Shown: positions 37,310 to 45,700 of the stretch, piece by piece
Position numbering within the stretch: the first letter of the stretch is position 1
Layout: each line of letters opens with the position of its first letter
Source of the DNA: Dehalococcoidia bacterium
Lineage (GTDB): Bacteria > Chloroflexota > Dehalococcoidia > Plut-88900
DNA length: 64,000 nt
Reading direction: 5' to 3'
Assembly (NCBI GenBank): GCA_965249275.1
Contig: CBDFLQ010000007.1
Span: forward strand, 864,001 to 928,000
Notes under the pieces: generated by a model
The model's database searches: none
What the model saw: the letters and a program-made list of their open reading frames with translations, nothing else
What the model was told of the DNA's origin: nothing
Program-made: the position numbers and the translations under genes

Positions 37310-37432
37310 CGCTCACCCTGAGCCCCATCGAAGGGTCGAGCAGGGGGGTGGTCCCGCACTGCCAATCCGTCGCGCCCGCCTCCACCCCAACCCCCTTAAC
37401 CCTGTCATTCCGAGGCTCCGCGAGGAATCTAG
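37310..37432. repeat. REP-like palindromic units
   Basis: GCTCACCCTGAGCCCCATCGAAGGG and TGTCATTCCGAGGCTCCGCGAGGAATCT resemble common bacterial REP-type repeats. Confidence 0.45.
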
Positions 37433-38628
37433 GAAACCTCTGAACAAGTCTAAGGGCATAGGTAATAGGTAAGATAGGGAGAGTAAGGCCAAAGCTGAGG
37501 TGAGATTTGATGGAGCAGCCGACATTTGCAGACTTGGAATACGAGGGCAAGAAGCGAAAGACCCGCCGGGAGATATTTCTGGAGCGGATGGAGGACCTGG
37601 TTCCATGGGGAAAGTTAGAGGAGCGAATCCGGCCCTACTATTCCAGGGCGGGCCGTGGACGGAGGCCCTACGAGTTGTCGGTGATGCTGCGGATACACTG
37701 CGTGCAGCTGTTCTACAACCTGAGCGATCCGGGCATGGAGGACATGCTCTACGAGGTGGAGTCGGTGAGGCGGTTCGCAGGTCTGAGGCTGTCCGGCCCC
37801 TTGCCTGACGAGACTACGATACTGAACTTCCGCCATCTGCTGGAAGAGCAGGAGTTGGGTCGGGGGCTGTTCGAGGAGATCAACCGTCATCTGGAGTCTC
37901 GGGGACTGAGGCTCAGGGAGGGTACGATTGTGGATGCGAGCATCATCGAGGCGCCGGCGTCTACGAAGAACCGTGCTGGAGAGCGAGACCCCGATATGCA
38001 CCAAGTGAAGAAGGGGAAGGAGTGGCACTTCGGTATGAAAGTGCACATTGGTGCAGACGCTGACACGGGGGTGGTGCACAGTATGAGTACGACAGCTGCG
38101 AACGTGCATGACGTGACGGAGGCGCACCGGCTGCTGCATGGAGGGGAGAGGCGAGTGTGGGGAGATGCGGGATATCAGGGAGTGGAGAAGCGGGCGGAGA
38201 ATCGGGATATGGATGTGGAGTGGCGGGTGGCGATGAGACCTGGACGGCGTCGGAAACTGAGGGCGGGGAGCTGCGAGGCCTTAGCGGAGAAGAGCAAATC
38301 ATCCATCAGGGCTAAGGTGGAGCATCCGTTCCTGTACGTGAAACGGCACTTCGGCTACGCCAAGGTCCGCTACAGGGGCTTGTACAAGAACACGCAACGG
38401 GTGGCGATGCTGCTGGGGCTGGCCAACTTGGTAAGGGCCGAGCGCCACTTAGCGGTGTGACGGAGGAGCAGTGTGGTCAAATCCGGGTCGATGGTGACTG
38501 GATGCCCTGACAGGCCAGAACATAGGATGCAAATAAGCCACCGAGACGCAACATTACGACCCAACCTCTCCCCAAAACTCCATGCAAGACAACCTAAGCT
38601 GGTTTACAGTGAGTTGTTCAGAGCTTCC
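37433..38628 (+). mobile_element. IS5-family insertion sequence, 1196 bp
   Basis: Terminal IRs GAAACCTCTGAACAAGTC / (rc) GGAAGCTCTGAACAACTC; CTAG duplicated at 37429-37432 and 38629-38632. Confidence 0.92.
37507..38460 (+). CDS. IS5-family DDE transposase
   Basis: PDETTILNFRHLLE, IVDASII, FGMKVHIG, GDAGYQG, RAKVEHPF. Confidence 0.95.
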   Translation: MMEQPTFADLEYEGKKRKTRREIFLERMEDLVPWGKLEERIRPYYSRAGRGRRPYELSVMLRIHCVQLFYNLSDPGMEDMLYEVESVRRFAGLRLSGPLPDETTILNFRHLLEEQELGRGLFEEINRHLESRGLRLREGTIVDASIIEAPASTKNRAGERDPDMHQVKKGKEWHFGMKVHIGADADTGVVHSMSTTAANVHDVTEAHRLLHGGERRVWGDAGYQGVEKRAENRDMDVEWRVAMRPGRRRKLRAGSCEALAEKSKSSIRAKVEHPFLYVKRHFGYAKVRYRGLYKNTQRVAMLLGLANLVRAERHLAV

Positions 38629-38685
38629 CTAGGACTTGCCCTTTCACACCATTCCTCGCCTTCCTTTCCCTCCCCCATTGGTAAC

Positions 38686-38726
38686 GATATATGAGCCATG
38701 TTGCAGAGCAACATGGCTCATATATC
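38686..38726. repeat. perfect 19-bp inverted repeat
   Basis: GATATATGAGCCATGTTGC-aga-GCAACATGGCTCATATATC. Confidence 0.85.
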
Positions 38727-39032
38727 AATAAAACAGGGCGGGTGGGCGGGACTCAATATATCCCTGAGGGTGGTGAGGGGTGTCCCCCCAAATGTGACAC
38801 GAACCCCTTGACCAGAGTTGTACACATGTACTATATTCACCCCCGACTAGCTCGTCACTCACCCTAATCCCAAGGAGGAACCACAACCCAGGGGGAACCA
38901 CATCCCCGGCCCACACGAGGACTCAACGTCCAAGCCCATCCCAAAGGGCGGCCCACACGCCGCCCCACGGCTCAAGCAAACGCCGCCATCTCCTCATACC
39001 AAGGGCCCCGGCTCACCCCTCCCCCCACCACC

Positions 39033-39432
39033 CAGGCGATGGAAGGTCCACAGACTATGCTCGGCAGGCCCCGTCCAGGGCCCCTGCCGATTCAACGCTT
39101 CCCATTACCGGATGCGTTTACCCCGGCCCATTGCGCGCCGGTTTCCCGGGTAGGTCAACCAACCCCCGGTTTAGCAAGGTCCTCGTGTCCTTGTTTGTCC
39201 CGCCATCCCCGCCATCCGTCTACCCGGCGGATGCACCGGGACGCCGGTTATGAAAGTCCGCCTCAGGCGGTATCTTCCCCGTCAGCGGTCCGGTCAAGTG
39301 CCGCTGCCGGTAGGATCGGCCCCACACAACCCTGACCGCAGCCGACAACATGTGGGGATAGTCCAGCCCGGTGCCGACGGCTCGGCAGCAACCCCCGGTC
39401 TGAATTCTAGTCACCGGACCTTCCATCGCCTG
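39033..39432. ncRNA. candidate large structured ncRNA (or MITE), 400 nt
   Basis: Perfect 17-bp terminal stem CAGGCGATGGAAGGTCC/GGACCTTCCATCGCCTG enclosing about ten further helices; no convincing ORF. Confidence 0.5.
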
Positions 39433-39565
39433 CCCCCTACAAACAAAACGGAACCCCAAACGCCAACTGAATAAACACCGTCCCCTCCCCCTGGTTGCGT
39501 GATACACTTCATCCAACCCCATCCCCTGAGCCTTTCCGCCATCCCTTATGGAGGTGCCGACGCCC

Positions 39566-40552
39566 ATGAATTACGACATGGAGATACCAACCAGCCGGGA
39601 AGCGGTCTTCGTGCCGATTCCATTCGCCGGGCCCAAAGAGATAGTGAAGATAGTCCAGGACGCCGAGAAGCTCGGCTATCACGCCGTCTGGGGCACCGAC
39701 TTCATGACCCTGGCCCCGGGCGTATCCCCCCTGGAAGACCCTGACCCGCCCAACTGGTACGAGCTCATCGTGTCCCTGTCCTACCTGGCCGCCGTCACGG
39801 ACAAGATCATGCTCGGGACCGGCGTCGTCCTGCTCCCCTATCGGGACCCGATAATCCTGGCCCGGCAGATCACGACTCTGGACCACTTCAGCAACGGCAG
39901 AGTTGCCTTGGGAATAGGGCTCGGCAACCGAGCCGAGTACGAGATGGTCCAGCCCAAGATGCGCAAGGTACACCGGGGCCGCATGCTCGACGAGAAGATG
40001 GAGGCCTTGCATCAGCTCCTCGGACACTCCGAGCGCGCCGTCAGTTATTCCGGCAAGTACGTCGAGTTCCGGGACGTGGAGATATTCCCGAAGCCTGTGC
40101 AAAACCCGCTTCCCATGTACGCTCCGGGTCGGAACCCGGACGCCCTAAAACGCATAGCCAAGTGGGGCAATGGACTCTTCACGGCGGCCTCGGCCGGTCG
40201 GAGCGCCATTGACGCCTTGGAGCCGCTTCTGGAGCAGCAGGGCCGCAGCCTGGACGAGATCCACGTCATCGCCGAGGGTGAACTGAGCCTGGGATCTACC
40301 CACGAGGAAGCTGTGGAGCACTACCGCAACAGCATGCAGGGGCAGTTCCGTCTGGCTAAAGGCTTCTCCCTGGACAATATCGTGGAGCAGAACTGGATCG
40401 GTACCGTCGACGAGGTGGTTGATAAGATTGGTCAACTGAAGGACTTGGGCATCAACCACGTTAACGCCCTTCACATCGCCGGAGACACCATACCGGAGAT
40501 GATGGAGCAAGTGGAGTCGTTCGCGAAGGACGTGATGGCCAATGTGGGATGA
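39566..40552 (+). CDS. LLM-class (probably F420-dependent) oxidoreductase
   Basis: AEKLGYHAVW, TLDHFSNGR, PKPVQNPLP; GGAGGT RBS. Confidence 0.9.
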   Translation: MNYDMEIPTSREAVFVPIPFAGPKEIVKIVQDAEKLGYHAVWGTDFMTLAPGVSPLEDPDPPNWYELIVSLSYLAAVTDKIMLGTGVVLLPYRDPIILARQITTLDHFSNGRVALGIGLGNRAEYEMVQPKMRKVHRGRMLDEKMEALHQLLGHSERAVSYSGKYVEFRDVEIFPKPVQNPLPMYAPGRNPDALKRIAKWGNGLFTAASAGRSAIDALEPLLEQQGRSLDEIHVIAEGELSLGSTHEEAVEHYRNSMQGQFRLAKGFSLDNIVEQNWIGTVDEVVDKIGQLKDLGINHVNALHIAGDTIPEMMEQVESFAKDVMANVG

Positions 40553-45557: not shown

Positions 45558-45584
45558 AAGTCGGGAGAGGCTTTTACCAGTTCG

Positions 45585-45700
45585 AATCCAGGCAGGTGGA
45601 CTCCGACACTAAATCCCGCTTACAGTGGCGCTACCGCGGCGGCTTTTCACCGCCTTCCCTATTCTCCCTGGATGGGCACCTGAACGGGGAGTGGTCTGTG
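45585..45700 (-). ncRNA. cobalamin riboswitch (short form)
   Basis: Minus strand TTCAGGTGCCC...GGGAGAATAGGGAAGGCGGTGAAAAGCCGCCGCGGTAGCGCCACTGTAA...GTCGGAGTCCACCTGCCTGGA: AGGGAA, GGTGAAAA T-loop, GCCACTG and B12-box-like ACCTGCC. Confidence 0.85.

Follow-up and report, generated by a model that had tools for sequence, protein, structure and literature searches.

The 400-nt element at positions 39033-39432 of the window (the whole stretch of 64,000 nt of Dehalococcoidia DNA that was analysed) is in our reading, to which we give a probability of roughly 0.6, the inverted-repeat-bounded core of a mosaic, genus-specific and promoter-carrying repeat of a MITE-like or BOX/Correia-like kind, and not a single non-coding RNA (ncRNA) gene. 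In the unit as we propose it, a conserved box and a sigma-70-like promoter would be followed by a C-rich leader of ~190 nt, a stem-closed core of 314-546 nt and a C/A-rich tail, and around 60 such units per genome would sit at fixed intergenic slots, mostly ahead of a co-oriented gene.

An earlier note on this DNA had proposed a novel large ncRNA, and the 64-kb window, which holds one copy of a strongly folded sequence with no Rfam match, does look like the home of a single-copy gene of that sort. Nevertheless, a BLAST search of the genome, a check that the same note had suggested, returned 13 close copies, and the genome holds 59 related units. The single-copy gene is refuted by this copy number, and we leave it next to no weight. 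What stands of the proposal is that the structure is real, that it matches no known RNA family and that its transcription is plausible; what falls is its being a unique gene.

Organization and copy number of the repeat unit

Direct reading of both arms bears out the perfect 17-bp closing stem described earlier: positions 39033-39049 of the + strand (5' arm) read CAGGCGATGGAAGGTCC and the exact reverse complement lies at 39416-39432 of the + strand (3' arm), a perfect 17-nt inverted repeat that was also recovered by the inverted-repeat search and by counting the 17-mer. This 17-mer occurs twice in the 64-kb window, once on each strand, against an expectation of 0.05 from 100 shuffles, none of which contained two or more matches. 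The repeat search gave longer arms at 39033-39057/39408-39432 (25 nt, 88% complementary) and confirmed the direct repeat CAACCCCCGGT at 39160 and 39389. The nested pairs GACTA/TAGTC (39053-39057/39408-39412) and ATTCA/TGAAT (39090-39094/39401-39405), as well as those internal stems that were checked by hand, lie where they had been placed before.

Full-length copies of this core number 13 in the genome, are 87-100% identical and are spread over three contigs. A search for stem pairs with the 11-nt repeat core, GGCGATGGAAG/CTTCCATCGCC, allowing at most one mismatch, yielded 60 pairs spaced 310-728 nt; the 5' arm core GGCGATGGAAG is also conserved throughout the genus (9 of 9 genomes). A leader module is found on exactly one side, always the same one, in 59 of the 60 pairs, and the sixtieth is probably a chance pair. 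The 59 units of this 2.9-Mb genome have cores of 314-546 nt that fall into nine subfamilies of 13, 12, 10, 8, 6, 5, 2, 2 and 1 members, the window copy belonging to subfamily 0. The stem and short adjoining stretches are common to all nine and little else is, and leader types are mixed across core subfamilies. Because some 60 copies are dispersed in the genome, we are dealing with a repeat family and not with a one-off RNA gene. Nor is the core coding, since 1-nt indels occur among near-identical copies; on this ground an ORF of 98 aa on the + strand (39039-39335) and another ORF on the minus strand (39220-39567) were both rejected.

The repeat unit reaches ~250 nt upstream of the inverted repeats, taking in promoter and leader, and 40-110 nt downstream of them; the unit measures ~0.7-0.8 kb, and if our reading is right the family makes up ~1.5% of these small genomes (~59 units of ~0.75 kb in 2.9 Mb). 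In the window, homology to the family begins in BLAST at ~38784-38794, and the 5' edge of the unit is the conserved box GTGACACGAACCCC (38794-38807, + strand), directly upstream of the -35 hexamer; the box, with up to three mismatches, precedes the core in most of the 59 units. The putative sigma-70-like promoter that follows, TTGACC-N18-TATATT (38808-38837, + strand), is part of the repeat unit and has 10 of 12 hexamer matches. Promoter-like sites in 38400-39700 number two, the second on the minus strand, whereas shuffles give 0.4 ± 0.6. Of the 59 units, 48 have the pattern TTGAC[CA]-N16-19-TATA[TA]T, with at most one mismatch per hexamer, at a distance of 180-253 nt upstream of the core; its hexamers are conserved and its spacer sequence varies, and it recurs at orthologous slots of other species.

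The C-rich leader (38845-39032, + strand; ~190 nt), whose start we place from the position of the -10 hexamer, carries AAGGAGG (38872-38878), which no start codon follows; in the genomes of the genus that are most distant, 38872-38995 is what still matches of the unit. Beyond the core lies the C/A-rich tail CCCCCTACAAACAAAACGGAACC...CTGAATAA (39433-39490, + strand), in which family BLAST matches extend to 39435-39486, and the motif CCC(A/T)..AACA(A/G)ACA..GAAACC..CACAA(C/T)(T/C)GAA is common to the tails of the 59 units. A co-oriented gene for a luciferase-like monooxygenase (39548-40552, + strand; Pfam PF00296, E 1.7e-46) begins 115 nt past the core, and the scan of 38400-39700 revealed no further promoter-like site on the + strand and no terminator-like site. 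The unit adjoins an IS5-family insertion sequence that lies outside it (37428-38634, + strand; ends CTAGG...CCTAG), with an ORF at 37507-38460 that matches DDE_Tnp_1 and DUF772; this element is present in 11 copies of 97.6-100% identity and its terminal repeats are unrelated to those of the core.

Folding and probable transcription of the core

The + strand of 39033-39432 has a minimum free energy (MFE) of -184.9 kcal/mol compared with -147.3 ± 5.5 in 100 dinucleotide shuffles, none of which folded as well (z -6.9), and the minus strand one of -205.2 compared with -172.6 ± 5.7 kcal/mol (z -5.7). Most helices listed in the earlier note are recovered in the MFE fold. In these models the closing stem is the source of much of the excess stability. 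When 27 nt were trimmed from each end in 17 family members other than the window copy (25 shuffles each), + strand z values ranged from +0.5 to -5.3 and were -2 or lower in 12 of the 17, and the interiors of subfamilies 2 and 4 folded no better than shuffles (z -1.05 to +0.5). In the predicted fold of 38845-39570 the leader is mostly unpaired and the core would form an independent domain between unpaired flanks.

The alignment of subfamily 0 comprised the 13 copies of this genome and 15 more full-length copies from four sister genomes (28 copies, five genomes). On its + strand, 6 of 99 consensus pairs show compensatory changes, and compensatory cells amount to 21, against 6.6 ± 1.9 in shuffled alignments (0 of 500 reach 21) and 2-4 in slid controls. 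The absolute strength of covariation is low: RNAalifold assigns it -0.45 kcal/mol, and most helices are invariant. One compensatory GGAGG/CCTCC change lies within the closing stem at the leuS slot of a related genome, G005, and among subfamily-0 copies there are whole hairpins that are present or absent and variation that affects loops alone.

Which strand would the structure belong to? The consensus fold reaches -146.9 kcal/mol on the minus strand versus -111.7 on the plus strand, with 5 compensatory pairs on the minus strand, and the closing-stem substitutions of subfamily 0 are mostly wobble-compatible on the minus, not the plus, strand. Stems of other subfamilies, among them subfamily 1, favour the plus strand, and all 59 stems together (positions 2-16, ungapped) give 37 G.U-type versus 28 A.C-type cells, a count confounded by a bulge in subfamilies 2 and 4. 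Structure neither confirms nor rules out the lean towards the minus strand expressed in the earlier note, and the conserved promoter points along the + strand.

Contigs assembled from four metatranscriptome runs (two studies) fall on 38853-39430 and some of them span the leader-core junction (38964-39430, 38937-39077); none falls on 38474-38607, next to none on 38608-38852, and none bridges 39431-39562. Such assembled contigs may contain DNA and are silent on strand, start and end, and the parts that they leave uncovered prove nothing. The unit is probably transcribed. Promoter conservation, folds and RNA-library contigs suggest that the unit's promoter would fire along the + strand to give a long RNA, in which leader and tail would be single-stranded and the core would form its own multi-helix domain with a closing helix of 17-25 bp. 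Since there is no terminator-like site, read-through into the downstream gene is expected, and the transcript would run on into that gene. By analogy with Correia repeats, the long perfect helix would be a plausible site for RNase III, an enzyme encoded in this genome (G000:C7:427888-428274).

Searches for known RNAs agree with the earlier failure to match tmRNA, SRP, 6S or RNase P. Covariance models of 4227 Rfam families, run at gathering score over the whole window, detected only a cobalamin riboswitch at 45574-45698, and ARAGORN reported 0 genes and no tmRNA. At E ≤10, the region 38600-39700 gave weak matches only on 38679-38803 (nine miRNA-like or rox2 matches on an unrelated hairpin at 38679-38733 and one DicF match at 38744-38803) and none on the 400-nt element; at E ≤0.1, 20 loci covering all nine subfamilies gave 3 weak, unrelated matches, all off the cores. 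The large RNAs OLE, GOLLD, ROOL, HEARO and raiA, together with RNase P, tmRNA, 6S and SRP, are like the core in their size of 300-600 nt, multi-helix fold and closing helix, but they do not occur in ~60 copies before unrelated genes and the core has no covariance-model match to them.

It might be asked whether the units are a multigene family of trans-acting or processed structured ncRNAs, with a promoter in each unit, in which RNase III would process the stem as it does in rRNA precursors and release a functional core of 300-550 nt, the subfamilies being functional variants. Indeed, the conserved promoter of 48 units, the independent fold, the modest excess of compensatory changes, the hairpin-wise variation, the presence of RNase III and the RNA-library contigs on leader and core all point in that direction, as do two observations described below, the same slots being kept across the genus and the core being better conserved than the leader. 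However, no common functional core is visible because the nine subfamilies share little beyond the stem, the interior folds of several subfamilies are no better than shuffles, and the bias towards co-oriented genes fits a cis role or the ecology of a mobile element better. We consider such a family of RNA genes unlikely.

Fixed slots, core replacement and possible mobility

The family is specific to one genus of Dehalococcoidia. The other genomes of the genus all contain unit DNA (8 of 8), which was found in 0 of 3 sister genera and in 0 of 29 other families of the class. Counts of the 13-mer CAGGCGATGGAAG are 10-36 in each of the nine genus genomes versus 0-1 in the three sister genera. Arm sequences also gave 6 single hits in viral contigs (17-mer) and at least 121 single hits in metagenome contigs (15-mer). 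A wider distribution based on these hits was rejected, and they were taken as chance matches, since no unit was found at 86 arm-bearing loci (6 viral and 80 metagenomic) and similarity never went beyond 20-25 nt; two of the 86 had both 11-mers, without an extended inverted repeat.

Across the species of the genus, units are located at the same slots upstream of leuS, gyrB and gltX. Both arms are present at the gyrB slot in 6 of 9 genomes and at the gltX slot in 8 of 9. The leuS slot is filled in 8 of 9 genomes and the native leuS promoter, downstream of the unit, is retained in all nine, so leuS does not depend on the unit for a promoter. Among six relatives, the slot of the window is empty in three and carries in the other three a unit with a subfamily-3-like core. 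The core at a slot thus differs between species while leader and tail can still be aligned: at slots with differing cores, core windows are 28-52% identical versus mostly 62-96% in the leader windows just upstream. Two G005 cores from different slots are 98.5% alike, compared with 73-75% identity to their positional orthologues in G000. Orthologous pairs whose cores belong to one subfamily show higher identity in the core (82-99.5%) than in the leader (68-92%) in 8 of 8 cases, and in 5 of the 8 the core also surpasses the downstream 800 nt, which are mostly coding; such high core conservation could reflect gene conversion among copies and not selection. At the DNA level, this is the pattern of a segment, delimited by the conserved stem and its flanks, that is copied from slot to slot, and gene conversion between units would be its simplest mechanism.

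The alternative named in the earlier note, a MITE with 17-bp terminal repeats, comes nearer to the truth, though it too is incomplete. The element has terminal inverted repeats (17 nt and perfect here; 11-nt repeat core in 60 pairs) and is small (400 nt), non-coding, multicopy (13 copies) and dispersed. A classical MITE would be a non-autonomous core whose terminal repeats of 13-25 bp are bound in trans by a DDE transposase with a strong preference for one site in the leader/tail repeat, its RNA structure being incidental. This would fit terminal repeats that are conserved across nine otherwise unrelated core types, a change of core at fixed slots whose leader and tail remain orthologous, and stem mismatches that lack a consistent RNA-type asymmetry across subfamilies. 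Against it, no shared target-site duplication of 3 nt or more was found in the flanks of the 13 close copies, where both sides of the core are conserved family sequence (CCACC before it and CCCCCTCCC after it). Excerpts of PMC10969869 describe the nesting of MITEs and the loss of direct repeats with age, so that a missing duplication is not decisive alone.

Other observations are also hard to reconcile with a classical MITE. No pair of arms 800-4000 nt apart encloses a transposase in this genome, and its three multicopy IS families have ends unrelated to the arms; CAGGCAATGGACG, inside an IS of 1.09 kb, was considered as a matching terminus and turned out to be a chance look-alike with 2 mismatches. 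The core was never seen alone outside a leader/tail slot (59 of 60 pairs are in slots). Coreless slots, which cut-and-paste excision should leave behind, were not seen either; every BLAST match of the leader that reaches 39030 continues into the 5' arm. The viral and metagenomic loci that bear the arm sequence lack the unit, and the unit is longer than the stretch between the repeats. Insertion polymorphism speaks clearly neither for nor against a MITE: whole units are present or absent at the slot of the window (empty in three of six relatives) and at one G003 site (compared with G000 C5:1994xx), but these comparisons of empty with filled sites revealed replaced or mosaic DNA with junctions that are not clean. 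On balance, a classical MITE seems to us improbable.

Inverted repeats of 13-25 bp around 300-550 bp, placed between a promoter and a gene and having one consensus genome-wide, are also what would be expected of an inverton flipped by a site-specific recombinase at the repeats. Such a switch is disfavoured, and we regard it as very improbable: no two of the 59 cores match each other in reverse orientation over 40 nt or more, and all 28 subfamily-0 copies, from five genomes, have one orientation relative to the leader.

Relation to known repeats and possible meaning for the downstream genes

According to crude ORF calls, 41 of 59 units are followed by a co-oriented ORF and 39 of 59 are preceded by a divergent one; the 18 units that lack a co-oriented ORF behind them count against our reading. 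Pfam hits were obtained for 43 of 45 co-oriented downstream ORFs tested, and the functions are unrelated, including leuS, gltX, gyrA, gyrB, uvrA, secD, lgt, amidohydrolases, oxidoreductases, transporters and others; association with one pathway, as in a riboswitch or cis-regulatory regulon, was not found across these 45 ORFs. Rho-dependent attenuation by the C-rich leader was considered and dropped, as a search of this genome (87% complete) revealed no Rho RNA-binding domain.

Correia elements are known to duplicate a TA target, whereas no target duplication was seen at the units described here and their cores are exchanged at fixed slots. Correia elements are also shorter, 100-200 bp, and hold their promoter inside the inverted repeats; here the core measures 314-546 nt and promoter and leader are outside, on one side. 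As far as excerpts of PMC10969869 go, Correia and other MITEs bear sigma-70 promoters, are situated upstream of genes and have terminal repeats at which RNase III cuts; in Neisseria transcripts the terminal inverted repeats of Correia form a hairpin that this enzyme cleaves. BOX elements are mentioned there too. Like them, our units are multicopy, intergenic and mostly just upstream of genes, with a sigma-70-like promoter and a terminal-repeat hairpin predicted from sequence, but cleavage is a property of Correia, which a predicted 17-25-bp helix and a gene for RNase III would make feasible here. The likeness to Correia and BOX is one of function by analogy, not of sequence homology.

The BOX elements of Streptococcus pneumoniae and the BIME/REP elements of enterobacteria are mosaic intergenic repeats built from a few module types in fixed order, with complementary end modules and a stable predicted RNA structure. 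The units described here are similar in that box and promoter, leader, core and tail follow each other in order and variants of them are recombined. However, BOX and BIME units measure tens to ~300 nt and have no promoter with a 190-nt leader, whereas our units measure 0.7-0.8 kb and their variable module is a structured core of 300-550 nt. Putative mobile promoters, which in excerpts of PMC3575422 are highly similar promoter regions before non-homologous genes within a genome, offer a further parallel, as here a single promoter module lies ahead of leuS, gyrB, gltX, monooxygenases and other genes. In contrast to mobile promoters, this module never comes without a long leader and a stem-closed core, and at leuS it is added upstream of the retained native promoter. 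We found no published description of the repeat family in searches of the literature on Dehalococcoidia or sponge-symbiont repeats, MITEs and mobile promoters.

To our knowledge, the slot-and-cassette behaviour of the core is not a described property of bacterial MITEs. We mention, as a tentative possibility of low probability, a cassette system in which ~60 promoter-leader slots ahead of housekeeping and metabolic genes, each with one of several structured modules, exchange these stem-bounded RNA modules by a dedicated recombination that recognises the stem, the module setting the expression of the gene or the processing of its leader RNA. If true, this would be a new class of RNA-based 5' regulatory element that is reprogrammable by recombination, so far in one Dehalococcoidia genus.

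Returning to the promoter-carrying mosaic repeat that we prefer, the family will mislead ncRNA discovery and annotation in these metagenome-assembled genomes because a single copy, taken alone, resembles a striking novel RNA. For the genes themselves, a unit would supplement or take over promoter activity and provide a 5' leader that is long and structured. If our reading is right, a promoter and a long structured leader have been placed before dozens of genes, among them gyrA, gyrB, leuS, gltX, uvrA and secD, and this would be an unusually large and stable case of promoter and leader donation by a repeat, one that was retained at its sites while the genus diverged.

The 400-nt element is one of many copies

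The 400-nt element at window positions 39033-39432 is the core of a genus-specific mosaic repeat unit made of a promoter-like site, a leader, a stem-closed core and a tail; there are about 60 units per genome, mostly before co-oriented genes of unrelated function (the exhaustive scan covered only G000, the window's own assembly). The sequence features described in the earlier note were recovered: read directly, 39033-39049 (CAGGCGATGGAAGGTCC) is exactly reverse-complementary to 39416-39432, the nested GACTA/TAGTC and ATTCA/TGAAT pairs and the internal stems lie at the claimed positions, and a repeat search returned the direct repeat CAACCCCCGGT at 39160 and 39389 as well as arms of 25 nt with 88% complementarity. 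The 17-mer of the closing stem occurs once per strand in the window (100-shuffle expectation 0.05; two or more matches in 0/100). The fold of the + strand, the direction of the unit's promoter, reached -184.9 kcal/mol (z -6.9; equally good shuffles 0/100) and that of the - strand -205.2 kcal/mol (z -5.7). The closing helix accounts for much of this excess stability. After removal of 27 nt per end from 17 family members (two per subfamily, one for the singleton, window copy left out; 25 shuffles each), z on the + strand ranged from +0.5 to -5.3, with z <= -2 in 12/17, and was more negative on the + than on the - strand in 13/17.

What kind of element is this? It matches no Rfam family and no tRNA or tmRNA. 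The sole Rfam match of the window at gathering score is a cobalamin riboswitch (RF00174, 45574-45698, - strand; 47.2 bits, gathering score 31.5). A protein-coding core was rejected, there being no conserved ORF. The window holds one copy of the element, so the remaining copies are invisible from it alone. G000 (2.9 Mb, 7 contigs, 87% complete) contains 13 full-length copies, 87-100% identical and spread over three contigs, and 60 pairs of the stem core GGCGATGGAAG with its complement (<=1 mismatch, spacing 250-800 nt), which refutes the proposal of a single novel large ncRNA gene. The alternative then offered, a MITE, agrees with the multiple copies and terminal repeats, but no target-site duplication was found at the copies, and no insertion sequence (IS) with matching ends among the three multicopy IS families of G000 or among wider-spaced arm pairs. 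Viral and metagenome contigs carrying the arm sequence included no relatives of the unit.

The 59 orientable cores are 314-546 nt long and cluster into nine subfamilies of 13, 12, 10, 8, 6, 5, 2, 2 and 1 members, the window element belonging to subfamily 0. Common to the subfamilies are the stem and short stretches next to it; their interiors are essentially unrelated. Two types of core end occur, GGAAGGTCC.../...GGACCTTCC and GGAAGACGCCCTGG.../...CCAGCAAGCGTCTTCC.

Architecture and surroundings of the unit

A longer query extended the family homology beyond the 400 nt, from about 38784 to about 39470, and in 59/60 stem pairs exactly one side bears a ~240-nt module with homology to 38794-39032. 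This module starts with a conserved 5' box, GTGACACGAACCCC (38794-38807, + strand), directly followed in a promoter scan by a sigma-70-like promoter, TTGACC-N18-TATATT (38808-38837, + strand). The promoter pattern precedes the core by 180-253 nt in 48/59 units, one of them in doubtful register; the hexamers are preserved and the spacer sequence is variable. Between promoter and core runs a C-rich + strand leader of ~190 nt; it contains a conserved AAGGAGG not followed by a start codon. The core is followed by a C/A-rich tail common to the units, which in 22/59 (manual count) reaches a (G/A)G(T/C)GTGTCAC box, itself the 5' box inverted, followed by ...CCGAACGAGTACA; the window unit's tail is without a good copy of this box. 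Leader types are mixed across core subfamilies, and the unit is thus a mosaic of modules.

According to crude ORF calls (longest ORF taken first), the unit and the next ORF downstream point the same way in 41/59 cases, and the next upstream ORF is divergent in 39/59. Of the 59 best co-oriented downstream ORFs, the 45 that had >=150 aa and >=0.8x the length of the longest opposite-frame open stretch were compared with Pfam, and 43 of them gave matches. The genes behind units encode LeuRS, Glu/GlnRS, GyrA, GyrB, UvrA, SecD, Lgt, FAD synthetase, seven Amidohydro_2 proteins, luciferase-like monooxygenases, transporters and others; since these functions are unrelated, a riboswitch-type regulon was ruled out. 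In the window, the gene is a luciferase-like monooxygenase (39548-40552, + strand), 115 nt past the core. A minus-strand promoter-like site, GTGACG-N17-TATAGT (38858-38830), overlaps the unit's -10 region and faces the upstream gene, which is usually divergent; together with the 39/59 divergent upstream ORFs, it raises the prospect that the unit may carry a bidirectional promoter. Apart from this site and the unit's own, the scan showed no promoter-like site in 38400-39700. In several other units, the host gene's TTGAC(A/C)-N17 -10-like promoter lies within ~5 nt after the unit, and at the leuS slot (the fixed intergenic site of the unit before leuS; loci L103-L111) a native extended -10 promoter, TTGC(G/A)C...TG(G/T)TAATTT, directly follows its 3' end. 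This placement suggests that units end just upstream of -35 boxes.

Other repeats populate the surroundings. An IS5-family IS at 37428-38634 (DDE_Tnp_1 and DUF772; 11 copies, 97.6-100% identity) interrupts a small palindromic intergenic repeat between GTCATTCCGAGGCTCCGCGAGGAATCTAG and GACTTGCCC, with CTAG at both junctions; an intact copy of this repeat is found in the tail of the unit at C7:250810. Separately, 38629-38783 forms a repeat module with a perfect 19-bp hairpin (38686-38726, 3-nt loop), which accounts for weak miRNA-like Rfam matches and is found again by itself as well as ahead of other units (e.g. C6:57283, C6:128563, C5:665825, C6:922437). G000 has two further multicopy IS families, e.g. 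at C6:56190-57285 and C5:20854-22220: the ~1.09-kb IS belongs to a repeat cluster of 13 intervals and sits in the same GTCATTCC...GGAATC small repeat, and the ~1.36-kb IS has 8 copies with a 401-aa ORF. Two repeats of 8.8-10 kb that tie the small contigs C3 and C4 to C6 and C7 may be assembly duplicates. The intergenic DNA of the genus is strikingly C-rich on the sense strand of the downstream gene and a patchwork of several other short repeats (e.g. unit tails; L024:1479-3000), such as CCCGTAGGGGCGACCGGCCGGTCGCCC(T)GGGGTGGGGC, GTGAGGGTGATCC and CCGCCTCTGGAGGAC.

Stable slots and exchanged cores

Unit DNA is present in 8/8 other genomes of the genus and, of the groups searched outside it, in 0/3 sister genera and 0/29 further families of the class. 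Likewise, the 13-mer CAGGCGATGGAAG occurs 10-36 times per genome in 9/9 genomes of the genus and 0-1 times in three sister genera (reversed control, 0-1). The units are old and stable in position. Both arms occupy the leuS slot in 7/9 genomes, an eighth has the promoter and 3' arm, and that of G001 is without a unit; 9/9 retain the native leuS promoter immediately behind the slot. Both arms are likewise found at the gyrB slot in 6/9 genomes (<=2 mismatches) and at the gltX slot in 8/9. At the window slot, three of six relatives (L021, L024, L026) have a unit in which the promoter module is the same and the core subfamily-3-like, and in the other three (L022, L023, L025) the intergenic region is merely 135-155 nt with ancestral divergent promoters; in the window itself, the ancestral -35 (about 37250) is decayed, and the IS5 copy has come to lie between it and the gene.

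The slots are stable across species, and their cores are replaced and homogenised between slots. At a single slot, leader and tail can be aligned between species around cores of different subfamilies: the leuS core is of subfamily 0 in G000 and G002, subfamily-1-like in G003, subfamily-5-like in G005 and of other types in G006, G007 and G008. Swapped pairs, profiled in 50-nt windows, are 28-52% identical in the core, mostly 62-96% in the leader just upstream and mostly 80-100% in the gene that follows. Within subfamily 0, same-genome copies at different slots can be closer than positional orthologues: two copies, G5_b and G5_c, are 98.5% alike and match their G000 orthologues at 74.5% and 72.6% respectively, and the G000 leuS core is 97.8% like another G000 copy versus 92.8% like its G002 orthologue. 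No core was seen outside a slot among the G000 stem pairs, no slot without a core (all leader matches reaching 39030 continue into the arm) and no reversed core (0 reverse matches >=40 nt among 59 cores). Gene conversion between units is the simplest process for this exchange; each tract would have the conserved end of the leader with the stem as one boundary, and the stem with the tail as the other. A dedicated recombinase that exchanges cores between slots is possible. The conserved stem and its flanks would mark the boundaries of recombination tracts.

Transcription, structure and relation to known elements

In paralogues and orthologues alike, the hexamers are conserved and the spacer is not, which argues for a working + strand promoter. 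Metatranscriptome contigs from four runs in two studies map onto 38853-39430; contaminating DNA may be their source. Some of them span the junction of leader and core (38964-39430, 38937-39077) at 90-95% likeness, and hence stem from related copies. Being assembled, these contigs indicate neither strand nor transcript ends. The predicted fold of 38845-39570 shows the core as a domain of its own between flanks that are largely unpaired. We aligned 28 subfamily-0 cores, 13 from G000 and 15 of 17 matches from four sister genomes (two partial matches left out). The RNAalifold consensus has 99 pairs, 6 with compensatory changes; compensatory cells numbered 21, against 6.6 +/- 1.9 in shuffles (0/500 reach 21) and 2-4 in slid controls, although shuffle statistics overstate significance because paralogous and orthologous copies are not independent. 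Most helices are invariant (covariation term just -0.45 kcal/mol), and in G005 the closing stem of the leuS-slot unit carries one compensatory GGAGG/CCTCC change. The consensus of the reverse strand is equally good (-146.9 kcal/mol, 108 pairs, 5 compensatory), and the stem wobbles favour minus in subfamily 0 and plus in subfamily 1; modelled structure by itself is therefore compatible with transcription of either strand and neither confirms nor excludes the earlier note's lean toward the minus strand. In 8/8 same-subfamily orthologous pairs, identity is higher in the core (82-99.5%) than in the leader (68-92%), and in 5/8 the core also surpasses the mostly coding 800 nt downstream, which could reflect either selection or concerted evolution.

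Correia elements, which carry promoters, lie upstream of genes and are cut by RNase III at their terminal repeats, as far as the cited source describes them (PMC10969869), are the closest analogues of the unit in these respects; the modular BOX and BIME repeats are also close, as are the 'mobile promoters' outlined in PMC3575422. Compared with what these accounts describe, the unit differs in size, in having promoter and leader outside the inverted repeats and on one side only, in lacking target duplication and in the slot-and-cassette behaviour of its cores. For these reasons we file it as a MITE-like mosaic repeat outside every named family, and the literature searched held no earlier description of it.

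We propose that the unit's own promoter would drive + strand transcription and that the RNA would run on into the downstream gene, since no terminator-like site was found in 38400-39700. The Rho RNA-binding domain (PF07497) was not detected in G000 (87% complete) by a search positive in 9/14 control genomes. An RNase III gene is present in G000, and the 17-25-bp helix would be a likely site for this enzyme. The unit would supply the gene behind it with added or replacement promoter activity and a long structured 5' leader.
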